From Vicinamibacteria bacterium (GTDB lineage Bacteria; Acidobacteriota; Vicinamibacteria; Marinacidobacterales; Marinacidobacteraceae): 64,000 nucleotides of DNA. Below are positions 10,499 through 62,600 of this stretch, one piece after another (the stretch's first letter is position 1; each line of letters begins with the position of its first letter). The notes under the pieces were generated by a model. That model did not search any database. It was not told the origin of the DNA and was given only the letters and a program-made list of their open reading frames with translations. The translations under genes were made by a program, and so were the position numbers. The DNA lies in contig OZ219815.1 in NCBI GenBank assembly GCA_964291235.2, positions 736,001 to 800,000 on the forward strand, written 5' to 3'.

Positions 10499-10685
10499 AC
10501 GTCCCGAAGCCGCCGCCGGACGGGCGCTCGGCAAAACAGTGTACCGCGGCAAGCGGCCGGGCGGACTCCGCCCGAACGCGAGACGCCCGGTGCCAAAGTC
10601 CAAGAGTGCCAGCGGTCAGAGCGTTTCCCAGTGTGGTATCATCAACGGTTCGCTTATCAAGTGCTTCACCGGGAGGCGTCGTTGA

Positions 10686-11330: not shown

Positions 11331-11378
11331 CTCCCGCCGCGACCCACGTCGCGGGCATCTGTCGGCAATCCCAGTCTG

Positions 11379-12173: not shown

Positions 12174-12407
12174 TTTGACGGAAGACCGACGACAGTCAAA
12201 CGCGGCACCGGGAGACCGGACTCCAGGTCCGGACCTGGAAACTACAATCAACCCCTCCCGACTCCTGACCGAGTCATTTCCCGGAGATCCCCGGTGCCGT
12301 AATGGGTGCGCGACGCCCGGAGCACGCCGGCTGGCCGTGCGCGGTCTCAAACCGGCAGCACTTTCACCGCACGCCGTCGCTCCCTCTCTTCGTCGGTACT
12401 CCCCGCC

Positions 12408-14036: not shown

Positions 14037-14779
14037 GCGGCTCCGAGCGAATTCTGGTCCTCCTCCGCCACGGGGAAAGCGTCTGGAATCTGGAAAACCG
14101 GTTCACCGGCTGGACGGACGTAGCGCTCACCAAAACCGGACGCGAACAGGCGCGGCGGGCCGGGGAGGAGCTGCGAAATGCGGGCATTGTCCCCACCGTC
14201 GCCCACACCTCCGTCCTGAAGCGCGCCGTCCACACGCTCGAGGAAGTTCTGGAGCGCCTTGAACTCCCCGACCTCCCGACCCGCTACGCCTGGGAGTTGA
14301 ACGAACGGCACTACGGGACGCTCCAGGGGAAGAACAAGGCGGAAACGGAGCGCGAGTTCGGCGCTGACCAGACGCTGGCCTGGCGGCGGAGCTTCCGCGA
14401 CCCGCCGCCGCTGGTGGAGCGCGACGACCCGCGGCATCCCCGCTTCGATCCGCGCTACGCGGCGGTGCCCGAAGAGCGGCTACCGCGCGGCGAGTCCCTT
14501 CTGGACACCGGCCGCCGGGTGATCCCCTACTGGGAACAGCAGATCCTTCCGGATCTCGCCGCGGGTCCGGTGCTCGTGGTCGCCCACGGAAACAGCCTGC
14601 GCTCGCTGGTCATGCATCTCGAAGGGGTCGGGCCCGCGGAGATCCAGCAGCGGAACATTCCGACCGGGATACCCCTCGTGTATCGGCTCGACGAGAAGCT
14701 CGCGGTGCTCGGCCAGCGCTACCTCGCCGGGGAAGCGGAGCTCGCCGACGGAATCGCCAAGGCAATCCAGCGTCCCTAG
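14033..14779 (+). CDS. gpmA: 2,3-BPG-dependent phosphoglycerate mutase
   Basis: LLRHGESVWNLENRFTGW, LNERHYG, AHGNSLR. Confidence 0.95.
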   Translation: MSGSERILVLLRHGESVWNLENRFTGWTDVALTKTGREQARRAGEELRNAGIVPTVAHTSVLKRAVHTLEEVLERLELPDLPTRYAWELNERHYGTLQGKNKAETEREFGADQTLAWRRSFRDPPPLVERDDPRHPRFDPRYAAVPEERLPRGESLLDTGRRVIPYWEQQILPDLAAGPVLVVAHGNSLRSLVMHLEGVGPAEIQQRNIPTGIPLVYRLDEKLAVLGQRYLAGEAELADGIAKAIQRP

Positions 14780-15660
14780 GAGCGCCGGCTGCGTGGCTCC
14801 CACGCGTTGGGGGTCTTCGCCGTCACTGATTGGGTCCGGGACGCCAGGGCGGATCAGGCCTGGGAGTTTCGCGGCCTACGGCCGCGATGCCGGCCAGAGG
14901 CCGGCGCTCCTGGGGAGCGAAACGCGCATCGCGCCTCAGCCCGACGGCGCAAAGGCCAGGGGCGTCACGTCGACATAGAGTCGGAGCGCCGGCCTCCGGC
15001 CGGCATCGCTCCCCCCAGGGGAGCGAAACCGCACGGCGCTGCTCAGCCGCACGGCGCAAGGGCACACGGACGTTACGTCGTCCCCGCTTAGCTGGCCGCT
15101 GTGCGGCTGATGAAATTCGGGAGTTTCGCGGCCAGCGGCCGCGATGCCGGCCGGAGGCCGGCGCTCCTTGCACGTTGGGGGTCTCCGCCGTCATCGATTA
15201 GGTCCGGGACGCCAGGGCAGACTAGGTCTGGGAGTTTCGCCTCGCTTCGCTCGGCGATGCCGGCCGGAGGCCGGCGCTCCTGGTCTGGAGGCCCCCACCG
15301 GGAGAACTGGCCGGCGTTCCCTTGCCTGCGTGACCGGGGGGAAAGTGTGAAAGGGGGGCACCCCCCCTTTCACAAAAAGAAGGCGCTGAAGGATCGGAAC
15401 TCGCCGCAGCGCGCCCCCGGCGCGCAAGGGAGTTTCGATCCCGGCACGAAGTGCCGGGCGGCCCCGGAGGGGGCCTTTCCCGGTGTCTCCGCGACTCTCC
15501 CTCAACACATCCAGACCGCGGCCCCCTCCGGGGCCGCTCAGTGCGATGCCGGCCGGAGGCCGGCGCTCCTATGTCGCGCGCCGTGGGGCGGGAGGGGGGG
15601 CGCGTAAATCCCCCGCCCCCCAGGGACACGAGAAAACGAGCGCTCCGCGCTCCCCTCCCG
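14780..15660. repeat. Cluster of REP-like modules and GC hairpins between convergent genes
   Basis: Five copies of GCGATGCCGGCC(G/A)GAGGCCGGCGCTCC in both orientations, plus a 13-bp-arm hairpin at 15346-15374. Confidence 0.85.
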
Positions 15661-15671
15661 GCCCGCTCGGC

Positions 15672-16973
15672 TTAGTGCCCCTTGTGTCCGAGCGGACCGC
15701 GGGCGGAACTGCGCTGGGCTCCACCTCCGTCGTCGTCGTCCTCACCACCGCTGCCACGCAGGATGGCGGGCACGTCCACTCCGGTGGAGGTCTTCAACTG
15801 CTCCAGAAAAGCAGCGATGGACCCGGTCAGGCCGCGCACGTGGTTCGGGAGCGCGCCGCCGGTTCCGTTGTCAACCACCGTGAGCCGTTCCACGTGCAGG
15901 TTGTCATGCAGCACGTGGGTGACCTTGTCGAGGAGCTGCGGCAGCATCTGCAGCAGCATGATTTCCCGGGTGGTCTCGTCGGTCCACTGGGCCTTGATCT
16001 CGGCCAGGGCCTCGGCGGTGGCCTTCCCGTTCTCCCGGATGCGGGACGCGTCGCCCTGGGAGGCCAGCGACTGGGCTTGACTCGCGGCCTCGGCCGGCAC
16101 CACGGTGTTGGCCTTCTCCCGGAGTTCGTTGCGCGCGACCCGGATTTCTTCAAGCTTGCGCTCTTCCTCGATCCGGGCCATGCGCTTCGCGACCTCGGCG
16201 ACCTGTTCGGCCTGGTTCGACGCCGCCGCCCGCTCGGCCCGCCGCATCCGGACTCCGTGCTCGGCGTCCACGATCGCTTCTTCGGCACTGGTCTCGGCAA
16301 CCACGGCGTCGCGCTTCGCGCTCGCCGCCACGTCGCGCGCCTCGGCTTCGGCGCGGGCCTCGGCCACCTTGGCATCACGCCTCACGGCGGCGCTTCGTTT
16401 CCGCCCAACCGAGTCGAGGTAGCCCTCGGTGTCGGACAGGTTCTGGATCTTGAAGGTGTCCAGCACCAGGCCAAGCTGCGCGAAGTCTTTCCGGGCGGAT
16501 TCCGCTACCGCCTCGGCGACCCCCAGCCGCTCGGCGTTCGCTTCCTCCGGGCTTCGCGTGGCGAGGACCCCGCGAAGGCTCCCTTCGAGCGTCTGCCGCG
16601 CGACGGTCTGAATCTCGTGCTGCGTCCGGCCGAGGAAACGCTCCACCGCGTGATCGAGGCCGCCTTCCGGATCGCCGGCGATCTTCACGGTCGCCATCCC
16701 GTCCACGTTGAGGGGGATCATCCCCGCGGACAGCGCCTTCTTGACCGTGACCTCGATGGCGATGGTGTTCAGTGAGATCCGCGACACCGTCTCGACGAGC
16801 GGCCGGCGGAAACCGCGGCCGCCCCGGATGATGCGATATCCCTTCTTCCGTCCCGAGAAGATCACCGCCTCGTTGGGGGCGCAGACCACCACGTGGGCGC
16901 GGATGAAGATGATGACCGCCAATACCCCGACGATTCCGAGGGAAAGGGCGATTCCAATGGTTCCTGGGGTCAT
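15672..16973 (-). CDS. Flotillin/SPFH domain protein
   Basis: N-terminal TM, PNEAVIFSGR, AVERFLG, TLEGSLRGVLAT, GLVLDTFKIQ and an Ala/Glu coiled coil. Confidence 0.9.
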   Translation of the reverse strand: MTPGTIGIALSLGIVGVLAVIIFIRAHVVVCAPNEAVIFSGRKKGYRIIRGGRGFRRPLVETVSRISLNTIAIEVTVKKALSAGMIPLNVDGMATVKIAGDPEGGLDHAVERFLGRTQHEIQTVARQTLEGSLRGVLATRSPEEANAERLGVAEAVAESARKDFAQLGLVLDTFKIQNLSDTEGYLDSVGRKRSAAVRRDAKVAEARAEAEARDVAASAKRDAVVAETSAEEAIVDAEHGVRMRRAERAAASNQAEQVAEVAKRMARIEEERKLEEIRVARNELREKANTVVPAEAASQAQSLASQGDASRIRENGKATAEALAEIKAQWTDETTREIMLLQMLPQLLDKVTHVLHDNLHVERLTVVDNGTGGALPNHVRGLTGSIAAFLEQLKTSTGVDVPAILRGSGGEDDDDGGGAQRSSARGPLGHKGH

Positions 16974-17039
16974 GAAAGGGCCTCCCTGGTCGCTGGCCGG
17001 CCGTTCAACGTTGGGTTCTGGCGGGATGCCTCACGAGAA

Positions 17040-18455
17040 TCAGCAGTCATAGTAGAGAGCGAATTCCGCAGGGTGCGGCCGCTGGTCCATGTAGGCGAGT
17101 TCGTGGGCCCGCTTGTAGCGGATCCAGGTGTCGATGACATCGGGCGTGAAGACGCCACCCCGCAACAGGTACTCGGCGTCGTTCTCAAGCGCATCGAGCG
17201 CCGCCTTCAGCGTCGGAGGCGTATCGCCGATCTTCCGCAGCTCCGCTTCGGGCAGTTCGTAGAGGTCCTGGTCCACCGGCTCGGGAGGAACGATCCGGTT
17301 CACGATGCCGTCGAACCCCGCCATCATGATGGCCGAAAACGCCAGGTACGGATTGGCGCTCGGATCGGGGCAGCGGAACTCGATCCGCTTTGCTCCGGGA
17401 GCCGCCGAATACATGGGAATCCGTACCGCCGCCGAACGGTTGCTCTGCGAGTAGACGAGCTTGTTCGGCGCTTCGAACCCGGGGACCAGCCGCCGGTAGG
17501 AGTTGGCGGTGGGGCAGGTGAAGGCAAGGAGGGACGCCGCATGCTTCAGGATGCCGCCGATGAAGAAGACTCCCGCCTCGCTGAGGCCGGCGTATCCGTT
17601 CGGGTCGTAGAAGAGGTTCTTCCCCTTGCTCCACAGGCTCATGTGGCAGTGCATTCCGGACCCGTTGTCGCCGAAGAGCGGCTTCGGCATGAAGGTCGCC
17701 GTGCGGCCATGCCGGTTCGCGGTGTTCTTGACGATGTACTTGAACTTCATCATGGCGTCCGACATCTGGCTGATCGTCGTGTACTTCAGCCCGATCTCGC
17801 ACTGGCCGCCGCTGCCTACTTCCTGGTGGTGGAGTTCGGCGTCCACCCCGCAGTCCCGCAGGTTGGTGAGCATCTGGGAGCGCACGTCCTGATATGGATC
17901 GGTCGGCGGCATCCGGAAATAACCCTGCTTGAGGCCCGGCTTGTGGCCAAGGTTCGGCTTCTCGACGCGTCCGACGTTCCAGGCGCCGATGCCGGAGTCC
18001 ACGTAGTAGAAGGCCTCGTTCACGGTCTGGTCGAAGCGGACGTCGTCGAAGATGTAGAACTCGGCCTCGGGGCCGACGTAGCAGGTATCGGCAACGGCGG
18101 AGGTCTCGAGGAACCGGGTGGCCTTCTCCACGATGTTCCGCGGGTCGCGCGAATAGAGACTGAGGTCCACCGGGTCCTTGACGTTGCAGATGAACACCAG
18201 GGTGGGATCCTCGTAGAAGGGATCGATGAAGCCGCTGTCCGGGTCGGGACGCAGCAGCATGTCGCTCCTCTCGATGCCCTGGAAGCCGCGGACCGACGAC
18301 CCGTCGAAGCCGATCCCGTGGACGAACATGTCCTCGTCGAAGGCCTCGATGGCGTAGGAGATGTGGCGCCAGCCCCCCAGAAGGTCGGTGAACCGGAAAT
18401 CCACGAATTTGATCTTCCGGTCCTGGATTACGCGGCGGACGTCGCGAAGAGACAT
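17040..18455 (-). CDS. glnA: Glutamine synthetase type I
   Basis: FDGSS, GPEAEF, TATFMPKP, GSGMHCH, NSYRRLVPGFEAP, RIEFRCPD; adenylylation-type DLYELP. Confidence 0.97.
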   Translation of the reverse strand: MSLRDVRRVIQDRKIKFVDFRFTDLLGGWRHISYAIEAFDEDMFVHGIGFDGSSVRGFQGIERSDMLLRPDPDSGFIDPFYEDPTLVFICNVKDPVDLSLYSRDPRNIVEKATRFLETSAVADTCYVGPEAEFYIFDDVRFDQTVNEAFYYVDSGIGAWNVGRVEKPNLGHKPGLKQGYFRMPPTDPYQDVRSQMLTNLRDCGVDAELHHQEVGSGGQCEIGLKYTTISQMSDAMMKFKYIVKNTANRHGRTATFMPKPLFGDNGSGMHCHMSLWSKGKNLFYDPNGYAGLSEAGVFFIGGILKHAASLLAFTCPTANSYRRLVPGFEAPNKLVYSQSNRSAAVRIPMYSAAPGAKRIEFRCPDPSANPYLAFSAIMMAGFDGIVNRIVPPEPVDQDLYELPEAELRKIGDTPPTLKAALDALENDAEYLLRGGVFTPDVIDTWIRYKRAHELAYMDQRPHPAEFALYYDC

Positions 18456-49648: not shown

Positions 49649-51874
49649 TTACGGATCGACTTCGAAGACGAAGCGCATGCCGGCTTCGAGGTGCTCGGCG
49701 ATGTGGCAGTGGGCCATCCACTTCCCCGGGTTCGTGATCTCGAGCAGGAGGTCCACGGTTTCTCCGGCGGGGATGAGCACCGTGTCCTTGAAGACCTGAT
49801 TCGTGACCGGCGTGCCGTTCCGGCGCAGCACCAGGAAACGCTGGCCGTGGATGTGGAAGGGGTGCTGCATCGCGTGGAGCGCCGCGGCGTCGTTTCCGAT
49901 GCGGATCGTCACGACGTCGCCGATCCGGAAGCGCCAGGCGATATCCATGTCCTCATGGCCGGTGGCCGGTTCGCGCACGATCCAGCGGACCTCCTCCGGG
50001 GTGGCCACCGAGTTCATCATCGGCATGGTGTCCGCCCACTCGACCGCCGGGAAGAACACCCGATCGGCACGCATGCGCTGCATGATGGCCGGCTCGAGCC
50101 CGGCGACATCCATGGTGAGCAGGAGTTCGTAGTCCGGGGCGCGGTCGAAATGAGCGCGGAAGCGGTCCACATCCTCCACGACCGGGGCGTTTTCCCGTAA
50201 CGCCTCGTAGTCCGGGGCGCCCGCCGGATCGGCGTCGCGGTCGCGGACGGTCACCGTCCCCAGCCGGGTCACCCGGGAGAAATAGCTCCCGAAGGTGTGC
50301 TCCAGCGGACGCACCCGGTTCTCGAGGGCGTGCTCTCCCGCGGACTCGTAGCGAACCTCCACGATGTAGCGCTCGGCCGGGGCCAGCGTCACCGAATCCA
50401 CCCAGGTCTCGCGTTCGAACTTGGAGAGGTCCGACCCCACGACCTTGATCCGGTGCGTCCCCGGCTCGCCGAACGAGAGGTTGAAGGTGCGCGTGTTCGA
50501 GACGTTGGTGAGGAAGAAGCGGACGACCTCGCCGCGATCGAGACGCACCTCGTACCCGGGTTCGCCGTTGACCAGCATCAGGTTGCCGAAACGCCCCATG
50601 AGCGAGTGGGTGGCGCGCTCGGTCCCCCAGGGAAAGAGCCCCCCGTCGTCGGCGACCAGCAGGTCGTCGAGCATGAGGATCTCCTCGCGGTGGACCGGGG
50701 CGTACCACTCGTCCGGCGGCGCCTCCACCAGCATGTTCCCGTAGAGCCCGAGGTCCTGCTGCACCTCCTCGCGGTGGTGCGGGTGGTACCAGTAGAGACC
50801 GGCGTCCGGAAAGAAGATCCGGTACTCGAAGCGTCCGCCGGGGGGCACCGGATCCTGGGTCAGGTGGGGCACGCCGTCGAAGGCGTTGTCGAGCCGCACC
50901 CCGTGCCAGTGGATCGCCGTCGGCCAGGAGGTCTGGTTCTCGAAGTTGACGAAGATCGTCGAGTCCTGGTCCACGTGGATGAGCGGTCCGGGGTACTGCT
51001 CGTTGAACCCGTACATCACGTAGTCGCGGCCGTGGATGGTCCTCCGGACCCGGCCCGCGATCAGGTCGAGCGTCTGGCCGTCCTGGAGGCGCACGACCTG
51101 CGAGGGCACGGCGTCCGGGAGCGTTTCGTCGGCGGTCACCCGGGGCAGGAACGGCAGCGGCTCCGGCCGCAGGTGGCCGAGGCCGGGGACCATGGGCGTC
51201 TCCGGCAGCATCGGGGGATGGGACCAGGCGGGCGCGTCGGAGGCTGCCCCGTGCCCCATCGCGGCGTGATCCATCGCCTCGTGATCCATGGTCAGCGCGC
51301 CGCTCTCGCCGCTGCCGCTCACCGGCACCATGAGGTGGTTGTCGGGAAGGATGCGGGTTGAGGGCGATGCGCCGCGGAGCGCCAGCCGGCCGGTCCGGGT
51401 CTCGACCGCCGCCGAGGACTCGGCGCTCACCAGGATCACGAACTTGTCGAAGGCGACCGGCCCGAGGCCCGCGAAGGTTCCGTTCCCGACCTCGCCGAGC
51501 CGGACCACCGGGTCCATGACCGGAGTGGTCGCCCACGCCACGTAGGTCTCGAAGTCGCCGAGCGAGCCGGGCTCGGGAAGTCCCTCGATCTCCAGGTCGA
51601 GCCGGTAGCGCTGGCTCCCGTCCCGGGTCACCGAGACGCCGAAGGGGCTCGGATCCCAGCGGAGGAAGGCGGTACCGCCCGCGGGCGCCAGGTCCGGGGT
51701 CGGGTAGAGGGCGATGCGGTTGAGACCGGGGGCGCCCCAGTCCTCGCGGTCAGGCGCGGGAGGCTGGGAGGCGGCTGGCGGCGGATGCAGCAAAGCCGCC
51801 GCCCAGAGGATGAGCAACGGCACGATCCGGCGGCTTCCGGCGCTTGGCGGCAACCTCTTCTTCTCCTGGCGCAT
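49649..51874 (-). CDS. Multicopper oxidase with an extra N-terminal domain and Met/His linker
   Basis: IHWHG, WYHPH, HPFHIHG, HCHIAEHLEAGM. Confidence 0.93.
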   Translation of the reverse strand: MRQEKKRLPPSAGSRRIVPLLILWAAALLHPPPAASQPPAPDREDWGAPGLNRIALYPTPDLAPAGGTAFLRWDPSPFGVSVTRDGSQRYRLDLEIEGLPEPGSLGDFETYVAWATTPVMDPVVRLGEVGNGTFAGLGPVAFDKFVILVSAESSAAVETRTGRLALRGASPSTRILPDNHLMVPVSGSGESGALTMDHEAMDHAAMGHGAASDAPAWSHPPMLPETPMVPGLGHLRPEPLPFLPRVTADETLPDAVPSQVVRLQDGQTLDLIAGRVRRTIHGRDYVMYGFNEQYPGPLIHVDQDSTIFVNFENQTSWPTAIHWHGVRLDNAFDGVPHLTQDPVPPGGRFEYRIFFPDAGLYWYHPHHREEVQQDLGLYGNMLVEAPPDEWYAPVHREEILMLDDLLVADDGGLFPWGTERATHSLMGRFGNLMLVNGEPGYEVRLDRGEVVRFFLTNVSNTRTFNLSFGEPGTHRIKVVGSDLSKFERETWVDSVTLAPAERYIVEVRYESAGEHALENRVRPLEHTFGSYFSRVTRLGTVTVRDRDADPAGAPDYEALRENAPVVEDVDRFRAHFDRAPDYELLLTMDVAGLEPAIMQRMRADRVFFPAVEWADTMPMMNSVATPEEVRWIVREPATGHEDMDIAWRFRIGDVVTIRIGNDAAALHAMQHPFHIHGQRFLVLRRNGTPVTNQVFKDTVLIPAGETVDLLLEITNPGKWMAHCHIAEHLEAGMRFVFEVDP

Positions 51875-51950
51875 GGCAGTGGTTTCGGGATTCGAATGGT
51901 ACCGGCGGGGTGAGCGCAACCCGCGGCCCGGAGGCTGTTAGATTGCGAAG

Positions 51951-52568
51951 ATGACCGGCGTACGAATCCTCTTTCTCAGCGGCGCTCTGGCGACGCTCTC
52001 ACTCCCCGTAGCGGCGGAGGACGAGACCCTCGTTCTCGACAACGACTACGCTGCGGTGCACCGCAACGCCGCGCCGTGCGCGGACGCGGGTCCTGGCTGC
52101 GGGGAGCGGATCATCGTCGCTTTCGGCGAACTCAGCGTCGTGCCCGCGAACGGCTCGCCGGTCCCGCTGGCCTACGCCGAGGTCTTCGTGGCGCCGGCGG
52201 GCGCGACGTATGAAGTCCGGGGCTCGGAATTCGCCGAAGTCAACCTGAAGCCCGGTCCCCCGCCGGTGGATGGGCCGGAGGTCGCGATCGCCGCGGGGAA
52301 GAACGAGCGGCTTCACGACGCCGAGGACTACTTCGTGTTCGAGGAGCGGCTCGAACCGGGCGACACCCGGGAACGTCACTCGCACGCCCAGCGGGTGGTG
52401 CTGGTGATGGGGGCCACCGAACTCCAGCAGTGGCCCGACGGCGCCGACGAGGTCTTCAAGACCCAGGTCCCCGGCACCATCAAGTTCAACCCGCCGGTCG
52501 TGCACATCGTGAAGAACACCGGGGACGCGCCGCTCCGGAACATCGTCATCGAGCTGATTCCCCGCTGA
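51951..52568 (+). CDS. Secreted cupin-like protein
   Basis: Signal peptide; LEPGDTRERHSH...HIVKNTG. Confidence 0.7.
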   Translation: MTGVRILFLSGALATLSLPVAAEDETLVLDNDYAAVHRNAAPCADAGPGCGERIIVAFGELSVVPANGSPVPLAYAEVFVAPAGATYEVRGSEFAEVNLKPGPPPVDGPEVAIAAGKNERLHDAEDYFVFEERLEPGDTRERHSHAQRVVLVMGATELQQWPDGADEVFKTQVPGTIKFNPPVVHIVKNTGDAPLRNIVIELIPR

Positions 52569-52571
52569 TCA

Positions 52572-54852
52572 GTGAACCGCTGGGTGGCAGCTTTCGCCGC
52601 GGCGCTCGTGGCGGGAGCCGCCGCCGCGGACACGCGCGTGACGGGCCAAGTGGTCATCGCCACCAGTGGAGCACCCGCCGCGGGCGCCGAAGTGGTGCTG
52701 GCGGAGTCGGGCCAACGCACCCATACCAATGGAGAGGGGCAGTTCGTCTTCGAGCAGGTGGACCCGGGCGCCGGCATCACCATTCACGTTCATCTCGGTC
52801 TGCTGGTCGGGGAATCGGTATTCGTTCCGGACCTCCCATCCGGGACTGAAATCGCGCTCCCCGACCCGATTCGCATCGCCTTTCTGGGTACCCGGCACGA
52901 ACACGTCACGGTGACCGCTGCCTCCGGTGAGCCCTCGGGGTTCGGAGTCTTCGGATCCGTGTCCTCTTTCGAGGATCTCGAGCTACTGGAGGGGGCTCCG
53001 AGCCTCGCCGAGCTGCTCGAAGGCACGCCCGGCGTCGCGATCCGCAGCCTCGGTCCGGGGCCTGCCCGCCCCATCATCCGGGGGTTCGACGGCGACCGGG
53101 TGCTGGTCACCGAAGACGGCGTGCGCACCGGAGACATCGGAAGCCAGGCCGCCGAGCAGGGAACGATCGCGGATCCCACCCAGGCGGAGCGGATCGAGGT
53201 CGTACGGGGGCCGGCGGCCCTCCTCTACGGGACCAACGCCGTCGGGGGGGTGGTGAACCTGGTCTCCATGGGTTCTCGGCTGGCGCACGGAGAGATCTCC
53301 GGATTCCAGGGCCGCGCCAGCGTCAGCGCGGCAAGCGCGGACGATGGGCGCTACGGCGGCGCGCGGGTCCGGACGGGCGGCGGGGGATGGTTCGCGTGGG
53401 GCGGCGGCAACACCCGGAGAACCGGTGACTACCGGTCGCCGGTGGGCCGCATCGCCGGCTCCCGGACCGCCCTCGGCCAGGGCGAGGCGGGTTTCGGGCT
53501 CCTGAGCGACCGCGCCTACCTCTCGGCCGGCGTCCGTCTCGACGACAGCGAGTACGGAGTGCCGCTCGCGGGAATGCTCCACGGCGCCGAGGCAGAAGAG
53601 CTCGAAACCGTGGACGTGGCGATGCAGCGACGCCAACTGCGCACCGATTTCGGACTCCGTGGCCTCGGAGACATCTTCGAATCGGCGGCGTTCACGGTGC
53701 GCTACAGCGCGTTCGGCCAGGACGAGATCGAGAAGGAGGGGGACGGCCCTCCCGAACTCGAAACCCACCACGACAACCGCTCGCTGGTCTTCCGGGGCGA
53801 GCTCGAACGATCCGCGGGCCGAATCCAGGGCCGGCTGGGCGGGTGGGCGAACCTGCGGGAGTTCACCTCGGCGGGTCCGGAGGCGCTGGCTCCCGATACC
53901 CGCCATACGGCGCTGGCCGCTTTCGCGCTGGGCGAACTCCAGGCCTCGGACCGCCTCAGCCTGCTGCTCGCCGCCCGGGTCGAGAACAACGCCTATGACG
54001 CTGATGACCGTCCGGAGCCGGGTGAAGCCGACGATGATGACGACGACGGGGCACCGGAGGAAGACGGAGACTTCGAACCGCCCGCGGTGGTGGACCGCGA
54101 GTTCCTGGGCATTTCGGCGAGCGCCGGGTTGCGAGTGGACCTGGGGGCGGAGAGCGCCCTCGTCGGCACGGCGACGGTCTCGACCCGCGCCCCGGCGCTG
54201 GAGGAGCTCTACAACTTCGGTCTCGATGCCGGCACCCAGGCCTTCGAGATCGGGAACCCGCTGCTGGAGGCGGAGCGTTCCCGCGGATTCGATCTGAGCC
54301 TCCGGCGCGACTCCGACACCTTCGCCGGCAGCGCCGGCGTCTTCTGGTACGGGATCGCGGGCTTCACCTACGGGGCGACGACCGGAGGCCGCGGCGGGGT
54401 GACGGTGATCTCGACGGAACAGGCCGATGCGCGGCATCTCGGTTTTCGAGGTGGACGGACGGGTGCGGCTCGGGGCCGCCGATCTCACCGCGAGCGCTTC
54501 CCGGGTCGATGCGAGGTTCCCCGAACTGGGACAGCACGCGCCGCGGATTCCGCCGCTGAGCGGTCAGGTGGCGCTGGACCTTCCGGTGGGGGGCCTGCGA
54601 ATCGCGCCGCGGCTGCGGTGGGCCGCCCGTATGGATCGCCTCTACGCCGGGGAGACGCCCACGGACGGGTACACGGTCCTCGACCTGACGGTCTCCTGGC
54701 TGCTCCTCACCGGGAACGCGACCCACCACGTCTCGGTGGTGGGCCACAACCTGACGGACGCCGTGTACCGGCACCACACCTCGGTGATCAAGAACGTGGC
54801 GCCGCAGGTGGGACGGGGAGTGCGGGTCAGCTATTCGGTCCGGTTCTTCTAG
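52572..54852 (+). pseudogene. TonB-dependent receptor (ZnuD-like) with a +1 frameshift at 54443-54446
   Basis: Plug ARPIIRGFDGDRV, IEVVRGPAALLYG. GGT-TTT-C has an extra T relative to GFE in the paralog; the 3' part (FEVDG...SVRFF) is in another frame. Confidence 0.8.
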
Positions 54853-55210
54853 AGCGGATTTCTCATACTCACGGCCAGCCAGGTCCGTCCCGCCGCCCGC
54901 CTGCGGCGGGCTGTGCCGGCCTGGAGGCCGGCGTTCCCGTGCCTCCGTGACGTCAGCGCTGGGGGGATTCCGTCCCGCCGCCCGCCTGCGGCGGGCTGTG
55001 CCGGCCTGGAGGCCGGCGTTCCCGTGCCTCCGTGACGTCAGCGCTGGGGGGATTCCGTCCCGCCGCCCGCCTGCGGCGGGCTGTGCCGGCCTGGAGGCCG
55101 GCGTTCCCATGCCTGCACGACGTCAGGGCTGGGGGGATTCCGGCCTGCCGCCCGCTTGCGGCGGGCTGTGCCGGCCTGGAGGCCGGCGCTCCGACTCGGT
55201 CCGGCTCTAG
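54849..55210. repeat. 85-bp tandem array (about 3.6 copies) of the type-B REP module, bounded by CTAG-containing MITE-like ends
   Basis: Unit starts at 54885, 54970, 55055 and 55140; left end CTAGAGCGGATTTCTCATAC. Confidence 0.88.
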
Positions 55211-55274
55211 AGCGACAGCCCAGTCGCCTGCTCCCCGTGCGAGTGTTAGCATCGCTGGCTACAGATTCTCCGCG

Positions 55275-55553
55275 ATGAAGCGCATCGGCCTCCTCCCCAG
55301 GTTCCTGGCGGCGGCTGCCGTGTTGGCGTTGCTGTTCGCGGTTCCGATCGGGGTGCTCGCGCACGAGCATTCCGATCAGGGCGAATCGCAGTGCCGGATC
55401 TGCAAGGTCTCCGGGTCGGAAGCCGCCGTCTTCAACGACGGACCCTCGCTGCAGGCTCCCGCGAGCGATGCCGGACTCCACATCCGTGGAGTTCAGCTCG
55501 TTCCGGATGAGCCGGCCGCGGTCCCCGGAGCGCCCCGCGCACCGCCCGCCTGA
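55275..55553 (+). CDS. DUF2946/CruR-like leader peptide (TM/signal, CxxC, C-terminal RAPP)
   Basis: MKRIGLLPRFLAAAAVLALLFAVPIGVLAHEH...CRIC...PRAPPA, 92 aa. Confidence 0.85.
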   Translation: MKRIGLLPRFLAAAAVLALLFAVPIGVLAHEHSDQGESQCRICKVSGSEAAVFNDGPSLQAPASDAGLHIRGVQLVPDEPAAVPGAPRAPPA

Positions 55554-55645
55554 GGGTCGGCACCCAGGTCGCGAACCGTTCGGCCCCGTCGGCGGCCTCT
55601 GAACGTTCGGTTCCTCCGCACCCGAAGCCCTCAGGAGGTTCCACC

Positions 55646-56185
55646 GTGCTGCGCAATCGCTCCGCTTCCTCGATGGATCACGGGGAAGCGGGAGTCGGGT
55701 TTCCTGGCGACCGCTTCTGGTTTTCCGGCAGCGCGCGGCTGGACGACTCCCGGTACGGCGTTCCCTTCACGGGTGAATTCCATGGTGCGCGCGGGCATGA
55801 AGAAGAGGGCGAATACCACGACGAGCAGGAGGGAGGGCACCACCACGCAGAAGAGGAAGGAGGCGAACGCCACGACGAAGAGGAGTTGTCGTTGGTGGAC
55901 GTCGCCATGAACCGGCGCCAGTTGCGCACCGATTTCGGAATACGGAACTTGGGGACCGTCTTCGATGAAGCCGAAATCACCGTGCGCTACAGCGACTACG
56001 GCCAGGGTGAAATCGAAACCCCGGCCGCTGGCGGTCCGGAAGAAGTCGCAACCCACTTCGACAATCGTTCCGTCGTACTCCGGGGCGAGCTGAAGAAGCC
56101 GGCTGGCAGGGTCACCGGCCGGATGGGACTAGCAGCCTGTGGTGAAACCCCGGTGAGCGCCGAAAGTGGCGAGGCGTCCGGCTGA
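55646..56185 (+). pseudogene. Internally deleted, truncated TonB-dependent receptor with a His/Glu-rich loop
   Basis: Starts like the 56877 gene (MLRNR vs MMRNR), jumps to GEAG...DDSRYGVPF, and ends inside a MITE. Confidence 0.8.
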
Positions 56186-56314
56186 CAAGGCGCGTGAGGG
56201 AGGAATACCGGGTGTATTGCGACCGAAACGCAACGATGAGCGCCGCAAGCGGCGCGGTTCAGACGGGATGCATCGCCGCTTGAACGCCGCGGGGGTTTTG
56301 CCACAGGCTGCTAG
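56129..56314. mobile_element. MITE (178 bp) with 19-bp terminal inverted repeats and CTAG flanks
   Basis: CTAG-CAGCCTGTGGTGAAACCCC ... GGGGTTTTGCCACAGGCTG-CTAG (17/19 match). Confidence 0.85.
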
Positions 56315-56324
56315 GGCTCAGGCG

Positions 56325-56440
56325 CCTTCACGCTGTCCGTGCGGTTGGAGTCCGCCCCTGACGCATGTCTCCCGACCTCATCAGCAGGTTGGTGGATCTG
56401 CGCGGCAACTCGGGCCATGGGAGTGAGAGATCCCGGCCAG
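56325..56440. mobile_element. Degenerate right-end fragment of the 42.6/48.1 kb MITE
   Basis: GTCCGTGCG...CATCAGCAGGTT...GGGCCATG...TGAGAGATCCCGGCCAG aligns by eye to about 42840-42950. Confidence 0.65.
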
Positions 56441-56504
56441 GGATGACGCAGTCGCGTTGCGCCGCGTGCGGGCGTTAGCATGGTCGGTTGCAGGTCCACA
56501 CGCA

Positions 56505-56783
56505 GTGAAGCACAACGGCCGTCCTTCCAGATTCCTGGTGGCGGCAGCGGTTTTCGCGCTCCTGCTCGCGGCCCCGCTCGGGGTGCTCGCGCACGAGGAT
56601 TCCGATCAAGCGGATTCACAGTGCCGGATCTGCAATGCCTCCGGGGTGGAAACCGCTGTCTTCCACGACGGCCCCGCGCTGCCGACTCCAGAAAGCGGCG
56701 CCGGACCCCACAGCAATGGGGTTCAGCTCGTTCCGGATCCGCCCGCCACGGCTCCCGGGGCGCCCCGCGCACCACCCTCCTGA
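56505..56783 (+). CDS. DUF2946/CruR-like leader peptide, second copy
   Basis: GTG start, ...GVLAHED...CRIC...PRAPPS, 92 aa, paralog of 55275. Confidence 0.85.
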   Translation: MKHNGRPSRFLVAAAVFALLLAAPLGVLAHEDSDQADSQCRICNASGVETAVFHDGPALPTPESGAGPHSNGVQLVPDPPATAPGAPRAPPS

Positions 56784-56876
56784 CGGTCGGCACTCCCAGT
56801 CGGGAACCGCTCGGCCCCGTCGGCGGCCTCTGAACGTCCGGTTCCTCCGTCTCCAGAGACCACCGGAGGTTCCACC

Positions 56877-59183
56877 GTGATGCGGAATCGCGTCCTTTCC
56901 TCTCCTCTTCTCCGTTCCCTCCGGCGGGCTGGTGTGCTCGCCGGCTGCCTCACCTTCGCGACCGCCGCCGGGGCTCATCCGACGATCTCGGGCACGGTGG
57001 TCATCGCCGAAACCGGGGAACCGGCGCACGACGCCGAAGTCCTGCTGATCCAGACCGGCCAGGTCGTCCATACCGACGACGACGGCCGCTTCGCGTTCGC
57101 GGACGTGGACCACATCGGTTCCGTCACGATCCACGTGGATCTCGGCTTCCTCAGCGCCGTCCGCACCGTGGTGATCGACGCTGCACAGGAGGAGGACTTC
57201 GAAATCGGCGAGCCCATCGTCCTCGGGGCGCGGCACCGGATGCACGAACGGGTCACGGTCAGCGCTTCGGCCAGCGATTCGTCGCCGTTCCAGGCTTTCG
57301 GTTCGGTGCACTCCCTGGAGGGACTTGACCTTCAGAACGAGTCGGCGCGCAACCTCGCGGAGTTGCTGGAGAGCACCACCGGGGTGGCGATGCGCAGTTT
57401 CGGACCCGGCTCGGCGCGCCCGATCGTGCGCGGCTTCGACGGGGACCGGGTGCTCATCATGGAGGACGGCGTGAGGACCAGTGATCTGGGCAGCCAGTCA
57501 GCGGACCACGGAGTTCCGGTGGACCCGCTTCAGGCCGAACGGGTCGAGGTCGTGCGGGGACCGGCGACGCTGCTCTACGGGTCGAACGCCATCGGCGGCG
57601 CCGTGAACGTGATTTCCATGGCGTCCCACCTGGCGCACTCACCGCCGCCCGGATTCCGGGGGCAGGCCAACCTCGACTACTCGACCGCCGACGAGGGCAT
57701 CAGGGGAGGCGTTCGCGCCCAGACGTCCGGCGCGGGCTGGTTCGCCTGGGGCGGGGGCAACTCGAACCGGACCCAGGACTACAACTCCCCCGCCGGGGTG
57801 GTCGAGAACTCGGGAGGTTCCATGACGCAGGGAGAGGCGGGGCTCGGCCTCTTCGGCGAGCGCGCCTGGATCTCGGGTAGCGTGCGCATGGACGACTCCC
57901 GCTACGGCGTTCCGTTCGCGGGAGACTTCCACGGGGCCAGCCACGCGGGGCACGACCACGGACCGGTCGAGGACGAGGGGGAACTGTCCGTAGACGTCAC
58001 GATGGACCGGCGGCAGGTCCGCACGGACTTCGGGCTCCGCGACCTCGGATTCCTGTTCGACGAGGCGGAATTCACGGTCCGGTACAGCGACTACGACCAG
58101 GACGAGGTCGAGGCCTTCGCGGGCAGTGGAACGGAATTCGTCGCGACCCACTTCGACAACCGATCCGTCGTCCTCCGCGGTGAGCTCAAGAAGCCCGCCG
58201 GCCGGGTGCAAAGCCGGGTCGGGGTCTGGGGACACCTGCGGGAGTACGAGGCATACGGGGAAGAGGCCCTGGCGCCCCGCACGGACCAAAACGCGCTCGC
58301 GGCCTTCACCTACAACGAAATCAAGGCGAACGAAGGACTCGATCTGCTGCTCGGAGCGCGCGTCGAGCGAAACGCCTACGACGTCGGGGAAGACAGCAAC
58401 CCGCTCCGCCCGGCGGCAGTGATGGACCGCGACTTCCTCGGCACCTCGGCGAGCGCCGGAGCCCGCCTCGCGCTGGGTGATTCCACTGCGGTGGTCGCTG
58501 TCGCCAGCCTCGCCACCCGGACGCCCTCGCTGGAGGAGCTCTACAACTTCGGCCCCCACGTCGGGAACCTGGCGTTCGAGATCGGCGATCCCCGACTCGA
58601 CCCGGAACGGTCGCGGGGGTTCGACCTGAGCCTCCGGCAGAGTTCGGAAGCGCTCACCGGGAGCGTCAGCGCCTTCCGCTACGACATCGCCGACTTCATT
58701 TTCGGAGAGGCTCGCGAAGGAATGATCAGCGGGCTGCCCGTCCTCGTATTCCTGCAGTCGGACGCGATCTACCAGGGATTCGAGGTCGAGGGACACCTGA
58801 GCCTCGGCGACGCCGAGCTGGTGGCGAACGCCGCCTACGTGGACGCCAAACTCAGCACCGGTGAGTACGTCCCGCGCATCCCCCCGCTCGGCGGACAGGT
58901 GAAGCTGGATGTCCCGGTCGGCAAGCTGCGCCTCGCTCCCCGGATGCGCTGGGCGGCGCGCATGGATCGCCTGTTTCGGGGCGAGACGGCGACCGACGGC
59001 TACGCCCTGTTCGACTTCACCGCCTCCTACGTGTTCGTCGGAGGGCACGTGACGCACAACATCTCGCTCCGCGGCTACAACCTAACCGACGCCGAATACC
59101 GGCACCACACCTCGCTGATCAAGGACCTGGCCGCCCAGATGGGCCGGGGCTTCCGGGTCAGCTATTCGCTCAGGTTCTTCTAG
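56877..59183 (+). CDS. TonB-dependent receptor (ZnuD-like, likely metal uptake)
   Basis: ARPIVRGFDGDRV, SADHG, HAGHDHG loop, GPHVG, C-terminal SLRFF. Confidence 0.92.
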   Translation: MMRNRVLSSPLLRSLRRAGVLAGCLTFATAAGAHPTISGTVVIAETGEPAHDAEVLLIQTGQVVHTDDDGRFAFADVDHIGSVTIHVDLGFLSAVRTVVIDAAQEEDFEIGEPIVLGARHRMHERVTVSASASDSSPFQAFGSVHSLEGLDLQNESARNLAELLESTTGVAMRSFGPGSARPIVRGFDGDRVLIMEDGVRTSDLGSQSADHGVPVDPLQAERVEVVRGPATLLYGSNAIGGAVNVISMASHLAHSPPPGFRGQANLDYSTADEGIRGGVRAQTSGAGWFAWGGGNSNRTQDYNSPAGVVENSGGSMTQGEAGLGLFGERAWISGSVRMDDSRYGVPFAGDFHGASHAGHDHGPVEDEGELSVDVTMDRRQVRTDFGLRDLGFLFDEAEFTVRYSDYDQDEVEAFAGSGTEFVATHFDNRSVVLRGELKKPAGRVQSRVGVWGHLREYEAYGEEALAPRTDQNALAAFTYNEIKANEGLDLLLGARVERNAYDVGEDSNPLRPAAVMDRDFLGTSASAGARLALGDSTAVVAVASLATRTPSLEELYNFGPHVGNLAFEIGDPRLDPERSRGFDLSLRQSSEALTGSVSAFRYDIADFIFGEAREGMISGLPVLVFLQSDAIYQGFEVEGHLSLGDAELVANAAYVDAKLSTGEYVPRIPPLGGQVKLDVPVGKLRLAPRMRWAARMDRLFRGETATDGYALFDFTASYVFVGGHVTHNISLRGYNLTDAEYRHHTSLIKDLAAQMGRGFRVSYSLRFF

Positions 59184-59189
59184 AGGAAC

Positions 59190-59637
59190 GCGTGGAGCGC
59201 CGGCCTCCGGCCGGCATCGCGGCCGCAGGCCGCGAAACTCCCAGACCCAGTGGTCCCCGATGACGCCGGCCCAAACGGGGACGGCGCATCGTCACACTGC
59301 CGCATAGGAGCGCCGGCTTCCAGCCGGCATCGCGGCCGCGGGCCGCGAAACTCCCCTCGCTGATGTTCCCTGCCGCACCGCAGCCCAACTCCGTGGCGCA
59401 ACGCGACTCAGGCGGACGAAGAGCGTCGCGCCGTCCCCGTTTGGGTTGGCGCCGTCAAGGCTGACTGAGTCTGGGAGTTTCGCCTCGCTGCGCTCGGCGA
59501 TGCCAGCCAGAGGCTGGCGCTCCTTGGCACGTGGGGGGCCTCGCCGTCACGGACAGCGTCCGGGCCGTGGGGAACGAACAGGTTCGGGCGTTTCGCTCCC
59601 CGGTGGGGAGCGATGCCGGCCGGAGGCCGGCGCTCCA
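59190..59637. repeat. Cluster of four type-A REP modules between convergent genes
   Basis: Variants GCCGGCCTCCGGCCGGC, GCCGGCTTCCAGCCGGC and GCCAGCCAGAGGCTGGC. Confidence 0.85.
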
Positions 59638-59639
59638 AC

Positions 59640-62600
59640 CTAGAACCGCAGGCTGATTCCTACCTGCCCCCGCCGGGTATCGCCGAGCCCGCTGCGGAGC
59701 GATCCGTCGAAGTTGAAGAGCAGCGATCCGGTGTGGCTGTCCAGGAAGTTGTCGGAACCGGTGAGATTGAAGACCTCGAGGATCGGCTCGACGGTGGCGC
59801 CGTTCGGCAACGTGAAGGCGCGTGAGATCCTGAGATCCCAGGTGAAGAACTCGTTGTCGCGCCGCAGCGTGTTCCGGGTCAGGATGGATCCATCGGCGCA
59901 GATGCGGTCCGAGGGCTGATCCGCCCGTTGGCCCGGGCGCGCGCACGCCTCGGAGGCGGGGGAGGCCGACAGGTAGCGGAACACGTTGTTCCAGCTCAGG
60001 TCGCCCGGCAGGGTGATGAGCAGGTAGCCGCTCACCTGGTGGCGGCGGTCGCGGTCCGACCAGCCGAACTCGGGGCCCAGGTTCGAGGCATCTGCGTAAC
60101 GGAAGGTGAAGGGATCGCGCTCGTTGTCGTCGTCCGAGCGATCGAAGGCGAGGGTGTAGTGCGTCTCGAAGGTCAGCGGCCGGTTCCCGAGCGAGCTCCA
60201 GCCGCGGAGCCCGATGGTGAGCGCCCGGTAGCGCGAGCGGGCGCTGCTCTCGGCGACGGTGAGGGCGTTGATGCCGCCGCCGGAGGGGTGGGTGCCAATC
60301 CCGAACGGCGCGCCGAAGGCGGCGTCGTTGCGGTTCACGAACCGGAAGAGCTGGTCGGTCCGGGCATAGACGAAGTTGGCGCTCGCCGCCATCCCGCGAC
60401 CCAGGTCCCGATCCAGCCCGAGACTGAAGGACCAGGTCCGCGGCAGCTCGAGGTTCCGGTCGGCAACCTGGATGTCCGGCAGGAACGGGGGCGTGGTCGA
60501 AGCGTCGAGCTGCCGGTCGATCTCGGGGACCGGACCGAGGAAGGTGTCGGCGCTGCTGCGGAACAGGGTCTGCTGGAAGGCGCCGTTCGTGGAGCGGTGC
60601 TGGGCGAAGACCAGCATCGGGATCCGCGAGACGTAGGAGCCGGCTGCCGCGCGAGCCACGGTGCGGCCGTCGCCGGCGAGATCCCAGGCCACCCCGAGGC
60701 GCGGCTGCAGATTGTCGAGGTCGTTCGGGATCCGCCCGTCCGACGGGAACGCCGGGTCGTCGAGATAGGGCGCGAAGAAGGTGTCTTCCGGTTCGACGAA
60801 GACGTCGGGATGCCAGGTCCCGTCCCAGCGGAGTCCCAGATCCAGCGTGACGCGTTCGCCGGGGTGCCAGGTGTCCTGCAAGAACAGGCCGACCTCATGC
60901 ATGGTTGCCTGCTGGAGCCCGAGCTCGGCCGCGGGGATGCCGGGGACCGTCGCCGATTGCAGGTAGAGAAGCACCGGGCCGGTGATCGCCGCGCCTTCCG
61001 GACAGGCGCCGGCGGTGCCCGCGGACCCGTCCGAGCAGTGCACGTAGCCGCTGCCGTGGGTGACGAAGCCGACGAATCCCTCGACCGAATCGAAGATGTA
61101 GCGGCTGTTCGCCATCCCGATGAACTGCTGCTCCACCCGGGTGCGGTTGTATTCGACCCCGGCCTTGAAGAGATGGGCGCCGGTGGCGTAGGACAGGTTG
61201 TCCACGAGCTGGAACCGATCGTCGGAGCCCGGATCGATGGGCAGGAAGAACGGGAGCCCGATCCGGAAACCGTCGGCGAAGTCCATGGCGATGTCCGGGA
61301 ACGGCCGGCCGCCGAGGCGGTCGAACTGGGGCTGGCCGGGATGCTCGGCTCCCGGCAGGAGCGGGCCGTCGTACCAGCGCGGCCGATCCTCCCGGGCCCA
61401 CTGGATCCGCAACTCGTTCGAGAGCGCGTTGGTGAGCAGCGAGCGGAGGCTCCCGTTCACCGCGTGGGAGTGGTCGCCCTCGATGCCGTTCGCCGAACTG
61501 CCCCAGGAGTCCACGTCGAAGGTGCCGTTCACCTGTTCCGACCAGGTGTAGTTGTATTTGAGCGAGGCCTGGTGGCGGCCGCTCAGGTTGAAGTCCAGCT
61601 TGGCGAGGAGCGACCGGGCGTCGTCGGTGCGGCGGATGGGCCCGAACTCGCCGTCGAAGAGACCGGGCCAACGGGACTGGAGGAAGGCGTCGAGGCGTTC
61701 CAGGTTCGCCGGGTTCGCGACGCGGCGGGTGGTCTGCTTGGTCTCGGATGCCCCCTGCTGGTCGTAGGCCAGGAAGAAGAACGCCCGGTCGCGGGCGAGC
61801 GGGCCCCCGACGGTGGCCCCGAACTGGTTCCGCCCGAAGTCCGGTTTTCCGCCGCCCCGGTCGGCGGAGTACTCGGCCGCGATCTCGTCCCACTGGCCGA
61901 AGTAGTGGCCCGAGCCGCCGAGGTCGTTGGTCCCCGATTTGGTGATGACGTTGATGAAACCGCCCGCCGAGCGGCCGAACTCCGCGGGAGCGCCCTGGTT
62001 CACGATGACCAGCTCGCCGATGGCGTCCTGATTGAAGGTGAACGCGGACCGCTGGCCACCGCGCTGCTCCCCGAAGAAGGGGTTGTTGAAGTCGGCGCCG
62101 TCCACGATGAAGTTGTTGAAGATGCCGCGCTGGCCGTTGATATTGAGCTCGTCGCCGTCAGGACCCTGAGAGATGGAGGCGCCCGGGGTGAGGAGGGTCA
62201 GATCCACGAAGTTGCGGCCGTTGCTCGGCACCGCGTCCACGACCTCTTCGGTGAGGCGCTGGGAGCGGGTGAAGTCGGTGGTTTCGATCGGGGACGGCAG
62301 TTCGCCGAAAACGGTCACCGTTTCGGTGGCCACGATCCGGAGATCGAGGTGGAAGTGGAGCACCTCGCCCACTCGCAGGATCGCGCCTTCGATGCGCTCG
62401 GCCCCGAATTCTCCGGCGGCGGTCACGGTGAGGTCATAGGTGCCCGGGGGCAGCAGACTGCGGACGAACTTCCCGTCGGGGGACGTCTCGACCGTCGTGG
62501 CCAGATCGGTGCCGCGGTGCTGGATCAGGACGATTGCCGCCGGAACCGGATTGCCGAGCGGATCGCTCACCTCGCCGCGAATGACGCCGGTGGTGGTCCC

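Follow-up and report, generated by a model that had tools for sequence, protein, structure and literature searches.

Paired leader genes with CxxC and RAPP motifs as candidate metal-sensing arrest peptides ahead of a ZnuD-like TonB-dependent receptor in a marine acidobacterium

In a 64,000-nucleotide stretch of the genome of a Vicinamibacteria bacterium (hereafter the window; GenBank assembly GCA_964291235.2, contig OZ219815.1, positions 736,001 to 800,000 of the forward strand; G+C content 67%), two paralogous genes of 92 codons, here called leader 1 (55275-55553, + strand) and leader 2 (56505-56783, + strand), were found a short distance upstream of reading frames related to TonB-dependent receptors, and we consider it probable (about 75%) that each leader acts in cis as a metal-sensing ribosome-arrest peptide of the CruR/CutF (DUF2946) type. 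This class of mechanism has been published (CruR in 2022, CutF in 2023), and the motif pair, its spacing and the link to TonB receptors are in print; new are the lineage, a clade of leaders that is invisible to Pfam, a ZnuD-like partner receptor with a loop rich in His and Glu, a conserved spacer RNA and a decayed cassette whose leader has stayed intact. The leaders, which Pfam's DUF2946 model misses, would extend to marine Acidobacteria the principle of CruR and CutF, by which a metal is sensed by a nascent peptide on the ribosome.

The first-pass annotation of this DNA, made from its letters, had described two 92-residue paralogs with an export-like N-terminus, AHE(H/D), CRIC, a spacer and RAPP followed by Ala or Ser and the stop, and direct reading bore this out. 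Leader 1 begins with ATG and leader 2 with GTG, both run for 92 codons to a TGA stop, and their products share 62 of 92 residues (67%; BLASTP, E 5e-31). In each, a basic and then hydrophobic N-terminus has VLA at its end and is followed by AHEH (leader 1) or AHED (leader 2); CRIC occupies residues 40-43 (55392-55403 and 56622-56633) and RAPP residues 88-91 (55536-55547 and 56766-56777), with one A or S before TGA, and the CxxC-to-RAPP spacing is 44 residues in both. The export signal was judged by eye from the basic n-region, the hydrophobic core and the VLA before His30. The idea of an amino-terminal Cu(II)- and Ni(II)-binding (ATCUN)-like N-terminus, in which cleavage at VLA would leave His at position 3, was dropped because leader 2 has HED and distant members of the family lack the motif.

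The leader was present in all 15 genomes of the genus, in 24 of the 27 of the family and in 3 of 19 from one sister family, and a leader profile gave no match in 400 other genomes sampled across the phylum. Those relatives that carry a title are metagenome-assembled genomes (MAGs) of marine Acidobacteria or Candidatus Marinacidobacterium, which agrees with the acidobacterial host proposed earlier. A collection of 5.8 billion proteins held 22 close relatives of the leader, nearly all of 92 residues and none with a Pfam domain. Thirty related loci were compared, 29 of them with enough downstream DNA and 25 from the window's own family. CxxC and R[AG]PP were found in 30/30 of these loci, at a spacing of 44 residues in 27 and of 43, 45 and 46 in the remaining three; the tail after PP was a single residue in 28/30 and the stop was TGA in 27/30. 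A TonB receptor was the next gene in all 29 loci in which this could be seen; for the window's family (25 loci) a spacer of 84-108 nucleotides (nt) lay between leader and receptor. When 40 diverse members were aligned, the invariant residues were His30, Cys40, Cys43, Arg88 and Pro91 only, with the sequence between the motifs poorly conserved (mean column identity 38%).

Both leaders are preceded by TAGCAT, and the matching distances first reported for these boxes were confirmed, each box lying 22-23 nt before its start codon. At leader 1 the TAGCAT (55247-55252) forms part of an extended -10-like promoter box, TGTTAGCAT (55244-55252, + strand), which was read directly and is conserved in relatives; at leader 2 the -10-like TAGCAT (56476-56481, + strand) is preceded by CGT and not by TGn. 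The full TGnTAnnnT box was kept in 25 of the 30 related loci, 132-146 nt 5' of the first Cys codon, and TAnnnT stood at the equivalent place in 29 of them, with differing flanks. A strict sigma-70 scan gave no -35/-10 pair at the leader boxes, and a scan for intrinsic terminators found none in either leader-receptor spacer. A search for RNA runs covering this stretch returned none. Because the spacing and the TAnnnT box recur in nearly all of the 30 loci and RAPP is strongly avoided in Acidobacteriota proteomes (mean frequency bias 0.117 in the source data of PMC12992588), the pattern of motifs and box is beyond chance. As a gain for annotation, gene calls in these genomes should include the 92-codon leaders and their promoter box.

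In the coding frame of the leader family the G+C content of third codon positions (GC3) is 0.74-0.82 against 0.52-0.58 at second positions (GC2), and the median ratio of nonsynonymous to synonymous substitution rates (dN/dS) is 0.55 (186 pairs). The value for leader 1 against leader 2, 0.55, is the same as this median, and leader 1 has retained all the motifs. At the DNA level the duplication is 85% identical from about 60 nt 5' of the start codon to about 25 nt inside the next open reading frame (ORF). As the origin of the twins, a recent tandem duplication was rejected: leader 1 is nearer to relatives P0002-P0004 (79-80% identity by BLASTP) than to leader 2 (67%), the nearest relative of leader 2 being P0001 (83%), and the receptor remnant that follows leader 1 shares more with the receptors of other species (67-69%) than with the window's intact one (61%).

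Spacer RNA and a candidate arrest mechanism

The leaders had been placed about 92 bp before receptor starts, and the distance held, with a spacer of 92 nt after leader 1 (55554-55645, + strand) and of 93 nt after leader 2 (56784-56876, + strand), although the ORF after leader 1 proved to be only the remnant of a receptor. Spacer 1 has hairpin arms at 55572-55578 and 55608-55614, CCTCC at 55613-55617 and AGGAGG at 55633-55638; in spacer 2 the arms lie at 56803-56809 and 56839-56845, CCTCC at 56844-56848 and GGAGG at 56865-56869. The hairpin, GGAACCG/CGGTTCC with an inner GGCC stem, was common to the 25 aligned loci of the window's family, where it was 96.7% paired with 3 covarying pairs, a covariation score reached by 0 of 500 shuffles. 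In the same 25 spacers the GGAG core of the Shine-Dalgarno (SD) sequence was invariant, and a near-invariant CCUCC block stood about 20 nt ahead of it, overlapping the 3' arm of the hairpin. These spacers thereby offer a concrete RNA element made up of hairpin, CCUCC and SD. When both strands of 54800-57000 were compared with Rfam (E up to 1), there was no match.

From the motifs, their spacing, synteny, conservation and the RNA elements we infer stalling, a metal, a direction of regulation and a role for Rho as follows. Each leader would be transcribed from its own TGnTAnnnT promoter and its N-terminus would engage the Sec pathway. The ribosome would stall with the two Pro codons of RAPP in its P and A sites, one codon short of the stop, and during the stall the invariant His30 and Cys40-x-x-Cys43 would sit 44 residues upstream, just outside the exit tunnel. 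With metal scarce the stall would persist and the downstream receptor would be made; metal bound by the nascent chain would relieve the stall and let the leader ribosome depart. Receptor expression would then drop, most likely as in CruR, through Rho loading along the spacer and the C-rich 3' half of the leader, and pairing of the conserved CCUCC with the receptor's AGGAGG would provide a second, translational lock. We would place Rho-type control slightly ahead of SD masking, with the anti-SD as a second layer.

For Rho-type control, the 3' half of the leader and the spacer together contained more C than G in all 29 loci, the mean excess being 0.086 against 0.02 in the start of the receptor gene, and in the region of leader 2 the 78-nt maximum of C over G, 0.23, fell within the top 0.4% of + strand windows. 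The genome of the window has a full rho gene (589 bits). It also has a second Rho-like gene, at 441 bits under the family cut-off; the rho and Rho-like pair lies at G000:C2:46413-47648 and G000:C2:328374-329489.

Several observations weigh against the proposed mechanism as a whole. The C-over-G skew of copy 1 was unremarkable (top 6.5% of windows), and the spacer, at 93 nt with a conserved hairpin, is shorter than the 162 nt of CruR and less typical of a Rho utilization (rut) site. As for the translational lock, the SD was predicted to be mostly paired (mean unpaired probability 0.15), and masking the footprint of a stalled ribosome hardly opened it under equilibrium folding (0.15 to 0.18; up in 18/29 loci). 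In addition, leader 2 has HED at the place where most members have HEH.

It is possible, though we doubt it, that the output is purely translational as in CutF or SecM, the stall allowing the hairpin to form, withhold CCUCC and free the SD, with no part for Rho. The overlap of the near-invariant CCUCC with the hairpin's 3' arm, about 20 nt ahead of the SD, speaks for this, as does the pairing of the SD predicted in nearly all loci, where its partner was the spacer in 17/29 and the RAPP/stop codons in 5/29, leader 1 included, and where RNAalifold paired the Ala-Pro-Pro codons with the SD. The 84-108 nt spacers also fit the class of under 100 nt that the CutF authors, in passages of PMC9973294, tie to unfolding of a stem-loop. 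Against it, the footprint masking described above left the SD closed, the 5' arm of the hairpin begins about 20 nt past the leading edge of the stalled ribosome, and single-sequence spacer folds were not more stable than their shuffles (z -1.09 to +0.20). The CCUCC:GGAGG pairs never vary, and therefore covariation cannot test them.

Receptor type and candidate metal

The intact receptor downstream of leader 2 (56877-59183, + strand; 768 residues) has the Pfam domains CarboxypepD_reg and Plug and a barrel, and carries a His-rich loop at about 57927-57989. It had been called ZnuD-like in the first-pass annotation, and the searches supported this: ZnuD (NF038289) was the best of 30 matched NCBIfam families, its 183 bits falling well short of the 950-bit cut-off of the model, and the best match in the PDB was ZnuD of Neisseria meningitidis (4rdr; E 4.7e-24, 88 bits). 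Residues 125-766 of the receptor aligned with positions 32-684 of the ZnuD profile, nearly end to end, and the His/Glu-rich loop fell in a gap between two aligned blocks, as an insertion opposite ZnuD residues 260-318. Unlike ZnuD, the receptor has an extra N-terminal CarboxypepD_reg domain, and no operator of the Zur type was seen ahead of its cassette; no AT-rich Zur-type palindrome was visible upstream of either leader promoter, in a phylum for which no consensus is known. The 18 distinct loop sequences of leader-linked receptors, which vary in length, held 3-12 His and 10-36 Asp/Glu each, in contrast to 1 His in the 7 loops of a leaderless paralog. The loop of ZnuD in Neisseria meningitidis binds zinc, and His-rich loops can also bind Cu(II).

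Upstream of the cassette lies a multicopper oxidase gene (49649-51919, - strand) with three Cu-oxidase domains in Pfam and best NCBIfam matches of the CueO and CopA types, transcribed divergently from the block of cupin, receptor and leader genes. A multicopper oxidase 78-93% identical adjoined the cassette in 10/10 fetched loci of genus and family that have the main receptor type. The oxidase, of 756 residues, has an N-terminal extension of about 260 residues with a His/Met-rich stretch before the first cupredoxin domain. Next to it is an exported cupin-like protein (51951-52568, + strand; Pfam Cupin_2 at E 4e-4, below the cut-off), and such a cupin was found in 8/10 of the syntenic loci; the gene order oxidase, cupin, (TBDT_A), leader, receptor, TBDT_A being the leaderless paralogous receptor, recurred in 10/10 fetched loci with the main receptor type.

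The metal sensed is most likely copper, to which we would give an even chance, with zinc next at clearly lower odds and the remainder falling to other or unknown metals. CruR and CutF, the only relatives tested, both respond to copper (PMC9426467, PMC9973294). The type of receptor argues against copper: the copper/OprC-type TonB family (TIGR01778) scored 40.6 bits, under its cut-off of 472, over the C-terminal 200 residues only; in the PDB, OprC matched at about 1e-10 and about 41-44 bits, again over the C-terminus only; and CrtA (9rvq_A) matched over the plug only (25.4 bits, E 4.4e-5). The receptor is thus neither of the OprC nor of the CrtA type.

A less favoured version of the same leader principle, which we regard as somewhat unlikely, has zinc (or nickel or cobalt) as the metal both sensed and imported. 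His30, with His32 where present, would then form a Cys2His-type site with CxxC on the nascent chain, and the receptor's His/Glu-rich loop would capture the ion as in ZnuD. The best family and best solved structure of the receptor, both ZnuD, the placing of the His-rich insertion and the presence of a His/Glu-rich loop in all 18 leader-linked sequences favour zinc. So does Caulobacter, where a Zn/Co/Cd efflux operon likewise begins with DUF2946 genes (PMC4176598). Two further points on this side come from relatives of the leader, one of which, in genome G427, precedes a receptor with a CobN-like chelatase next to it, while a second leader subfamily precedes an ABC-2 transporter composed like Caulobacter znuGHI as described in PMC4176598. 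Against zinc stand the conserved neighbour, a multicopper oxidase in 10/10 loci, the copper responses of CruR and CutF, the affinity of His-rich loops for Cu(II) as well, the Zur-type palindrome that was looked for upstream of both promoters without success, and the ZnuD score so far below its cut-off. The proposal of a metal other than copper, made in the first-pass annotation, therefore stands in part, in the His/Glu-rich loop and in a receptor that is not of the CrtA or OprC type, and is opposed by the oxidase and the copper-sensing relatives. If the ligand were zinc, nickel or cobalt, the specificity of the sensor could be compared across natural variants of identical 44-residue geometry.

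The second leader subfamily lies outside the window (G000:C1:1244637-1244897, or L058:9838-10098) and has PHLHDE, CVLC, a 42-residue spacer and GSRAPPA before the stop. This leader ends 68 nt before a gene for an ATPase of the ATP-binding cassette (ABC) type that is followed by two ABC-2/DUF3526 permeases; its subfamily was found in 16 of 24 other family genomes, in up to 3 copies per genome, and the same ABC operon was downstream in 7/11 loci fetched from other genomes. A literature search found no paper on DUF3526. In genome G427 (L051, G427:C1:2069200-2089100, oriented 10102-17502), a leader that belongs to the window's leader family but has diverged precedes a receptor 30% identical to the window's, which is directly followed by a CobN/Mg-chelatase-like gene of 1610 residues, hinting at another cargo such as cobalt or nickel.

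Speculatively, this lineage may have spread the leader of CxxC, spacer and RAPP into a family of nascent-chain sensors whose metals and outputs differ (a 44-residue spacer with a ZnuD-like receptor; a 42-residue spacer with ABC-2/DUF3526; a receptor with a CobN-like gene), which would jointly make up a metal regulon run by leader peptides, without classical metalloregulators at these promoters. On such a reading the metal of the type with the 44-residue spacer may be zinc or another divalent one, and not copper.

Relation to known arrest leaders

The hallmarks of CruR/DUF2946, as set out in passages of PMC9426467, are CXXC, a C-terminal RAPP, a spacing of 45 residues between them, an export signal and a place as the first gene before a TonB-dependent transporter; in CruR, CXXC is at 90-93 and RAPP at 139-142, and the spacing varies by no more than 1-2 residues across over 2000 proteins (PMC9426467). 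Every published hallmark at the motif level (CXXC, C-terminal RAPP, fixed spacing, TonB receptor next) is present in the leaders of the window, and the first-pass comparison with CruR was sound to that extent. Going by what these papers describe for CruR (Bp2923 of Bordetella pertussis, in cruR-crtA(bfrG)-bp2921; PMC9426467, PMC12914433), the leaders resemble it in being small first genes whose products have a predicted export signal, CXXC and RAPP at the C-terminus, in a spacing of 44 against 45, in the TonB-dependent transporter that comes next after a long spacer, in an excess of C over G in the 3' part of the leader and the spacer, and in having their own promoter with no visible metal operator. 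They differ from it in length (92 residues against 145), in the one residue after RAPP where CruR has three, in a spacer of 93 nt that holds a conserved hairpin and CCUCC, against one of 162 nt, in that no PepSY_TM gene follows, in a receptor that is ZnuD-like with CarboxypepD_reg and the His/Glu-rich loop and not of the type of CrtA (structure 9RVQ, from PMC12914433), in their sub-threshold Pfam scores and in their phylum, Acidobacteriota.

A comparable mixture was found on setting the leaders beside CutF of Rhodobacter capsulatus, also DUF2946, as far as its accounts (PMC9973294, bioRxiv 10.1101/2025.02.05.636593) describe it. Shared with CutF are an exported nascent-chain sensor, for copper in that case, about 45 residues before a C-terminal Pro-rich stalling motif, an SD of the next gene masked by RNA structure, and a multicopper oxidase as part of the locus. 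CutF has CxxxC and PPP, in contrast to CxxC and RAPP with no PPP here, and of the features of the CutF type neither these two motifs nor a stem-loop over the SD melted by the stall was found with the present leaders. In CutF, copper prolongs the stalling and switches on the oxidase gene directly downstream, whereas here an uptake receptor is downstream and the oxidase is a divergently transcribed neighbour.

Passages of the 2025 survey of RAPP peptides (PMC12992588) report that RAPP and RGPP are strong arrest motifs in many sequence contexts, that toeprints of the CruR arrest place Pro-Pro in the P and A sites, and that upstream ORFs with RAPP occur before TonB receptors across Gram-negative phyla, a TonB-related class described there as universal in Gram-negative bacteria and almost always with a signal sequence. 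Like ApdA, ApdP and ApcA in that source, the leaders are small secretory proteins with RAPP or RGPP near the C-terminus, upstream of a gene on the same strand. The survey is based on the motif, and its text passages name no acidobacterial example; the source data of its Fig. 4E, at the level of phyla, were not in 9 of its 10 supplementary files. The word 'Acidobacter' was absent from three supplementary files of PMC9426467 and the phylum is not named in the text passages of that paper, and a literature search found no paper joining arrest peptide, RAPP and Acidobacteria.

Formal membership in DUF2946 (PF11162) was examined by the profile search that the first-pass annotation had suggested, and neither leader reached the cut-off of 23.7 bits: leader 1 gave a match of 10.9 bits (E 0.79) and leader 2 gave none at E up to 1. 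Sub-threshold matches were obtained for 8 of 24 close members (best E 0.0069) and 13 of 32 wider ones, with scores of 10.8-17.1 bits among the matches listed, none of which reached the cut-off; the best score in the window's own genome was 14.5 bits. Where alignments were listed, they ran from leader residues of about 24-33 to 88-94 against profile positions 49-117, the part from CxxC to RAPP. Only DUF2946 and PDGLE recurred in both sets, PDGLE in 9 of 24 and over the hydrophobic N-terminus. A profile built from the close relatives of the leader returned 19 proteins among 1.84 billion representatives, none a canonical DUF2946. By hhalign, the match between the leader family and canonical DUF2946 proteins from Acidobacteria (14 sequences) was confined to the last 13 or 24 columns (E 0.037, probability 1.4%, and E 0.0015, probability 16.5%, respectively), both alignments being low in diversity. 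Because hhalign aligns the C-terminus only, the likeness to DUF2946 may reflect either common descent or convergence on CxxC and RAPP.

Genes that pass the DUF2946 threshold are rare in the phylum (3/301 genomes); in 3/4 loci they stand before a receptor that is built like the window's and is 34-37% identical to it, and three at threshold level also have the 44-residue spacing (counted by hand). The ESM Atlas clusters nearest to leader 2 are small acidobacterial proteins, one automatically named DUF2946 and one with PF11162 on 54% of its members, which we take as a lead only. Going by the shared hallmarks and context, despite scores under the family threshold, the leaders are therefore classed as probably working like CruR and as probable, highly diverged relatives of CruR/DUF2946.

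Arrest in cis is also to be weighed against an improbable role in trans, in which the small protein would be stable after export and would serve the receptor as a metal-binding partner or chaperone, and RAPP would be incidental or would only slow the protein's own synthesis. Its signal-like N-terminus and conserved His and Cys agree with such a role, and DUF2946 had been tied to copper homeostasis by mutant fitness data before a regulatory role was known (bioRxiv 10.1101/072470). The fixed distance from CxxC to RAPP and the one-residue tail, however, suit a nascent chain on the ribosome and not a folded protein; conservation between the motifs is low (38%), RAPP is strongly avoided in Acidobacteriota proteomes, and neither CruR nor CutF was detected as a stable protein, according to PMC9426467 and PMC9973294. 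Still less do we expect the leader to monitor export or periplasmic thiol oxidation instead of a metal, with pulling by Sec or a disulfide in CxxC releasing the arrest: the first RAPP arrest peptides to be discovered monitor the Sec and YidC pathways, and some RAPP leaders precede genes of the DsbA or thioredoxin type (passages of PMC12992588), but the gene that follows here encodes a receptor of the metal type, the conserved neighbours encode a multicopper oxidase and a cupin, and His30 is invariant along with CxxC.

The decayed cassette and surrounding repeats

A second cassette has decayed behind leader 1, itself still intact, and only leader 2 would control a working receptor. The twin control of receptors first proposed for this locus is not supported, since the ORF after leader 1 (55646-56185, + strand; 179 codons) is a dead remnant without the plug and most of the barrel. 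By BLASTP it consists of 5 start-proximal codons fused to the equivalent of receptor residues 312-450 (61% identity over 157 residues), with a long His/Glu-rich loop included; its homology to the receptor ends at about 56132, and no Pfam domain was found in it. The junction was reproduced without differences in contigs from public runs X1 (over 55268-56205) and X2 (over 55383-56205), and in contigs of X3 (over 55087-56205) with 10 other letters and 2 gaps; because the contigs of three runs reproduce it, the junction is real and not an artefact of assembly. A form lacking leader 1, with contig joints from 54925 or 55095 to 56325, was not accepted, as the sides of the joint were just 24 letters long and lay within repeats.

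The remnant is truncated by a 186-bp element (56129-56314) resembling a miniature inverted-repeat transposable element (MITE), with 23-nt terminal inverted repeats that end in CTAG. It had 41 matches in the window's own genome at 78-100% identity, this copy and partial ones counted, and a fold energy of -117 kcal/mol (z -9.0). One copy lies about 550 nt upstream of a third leader, and in two related genomes (L007, L009) the end of the element abuts the leader -10 box and supplies its TGCTAG part.

TBDT_A (52572-54852, + strand) has no His-rich loop, and in the window its coding sequence is split between two frames near 54443. One base is missing at 54443 from the contigs of runs X1 and X5, those of X2 and X3 agree with the window, and because of this disagreement the break is either polymorphic or an error. 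Between TBDT_A and leader 1 an 85-bp palindromic repeat, rich in GC, recurs in tandem about 3.6 times (54884-55192); over this stretch of repeats the summed contig depth was very high in all four runs compared, as for a dispersed repeat. The cores of the repeat are GCCGGCC..GGCCGGC, and similar sequence was seen by eye near 59180-59640; in several relatives, units related to it lie upstream of the leader promoter.

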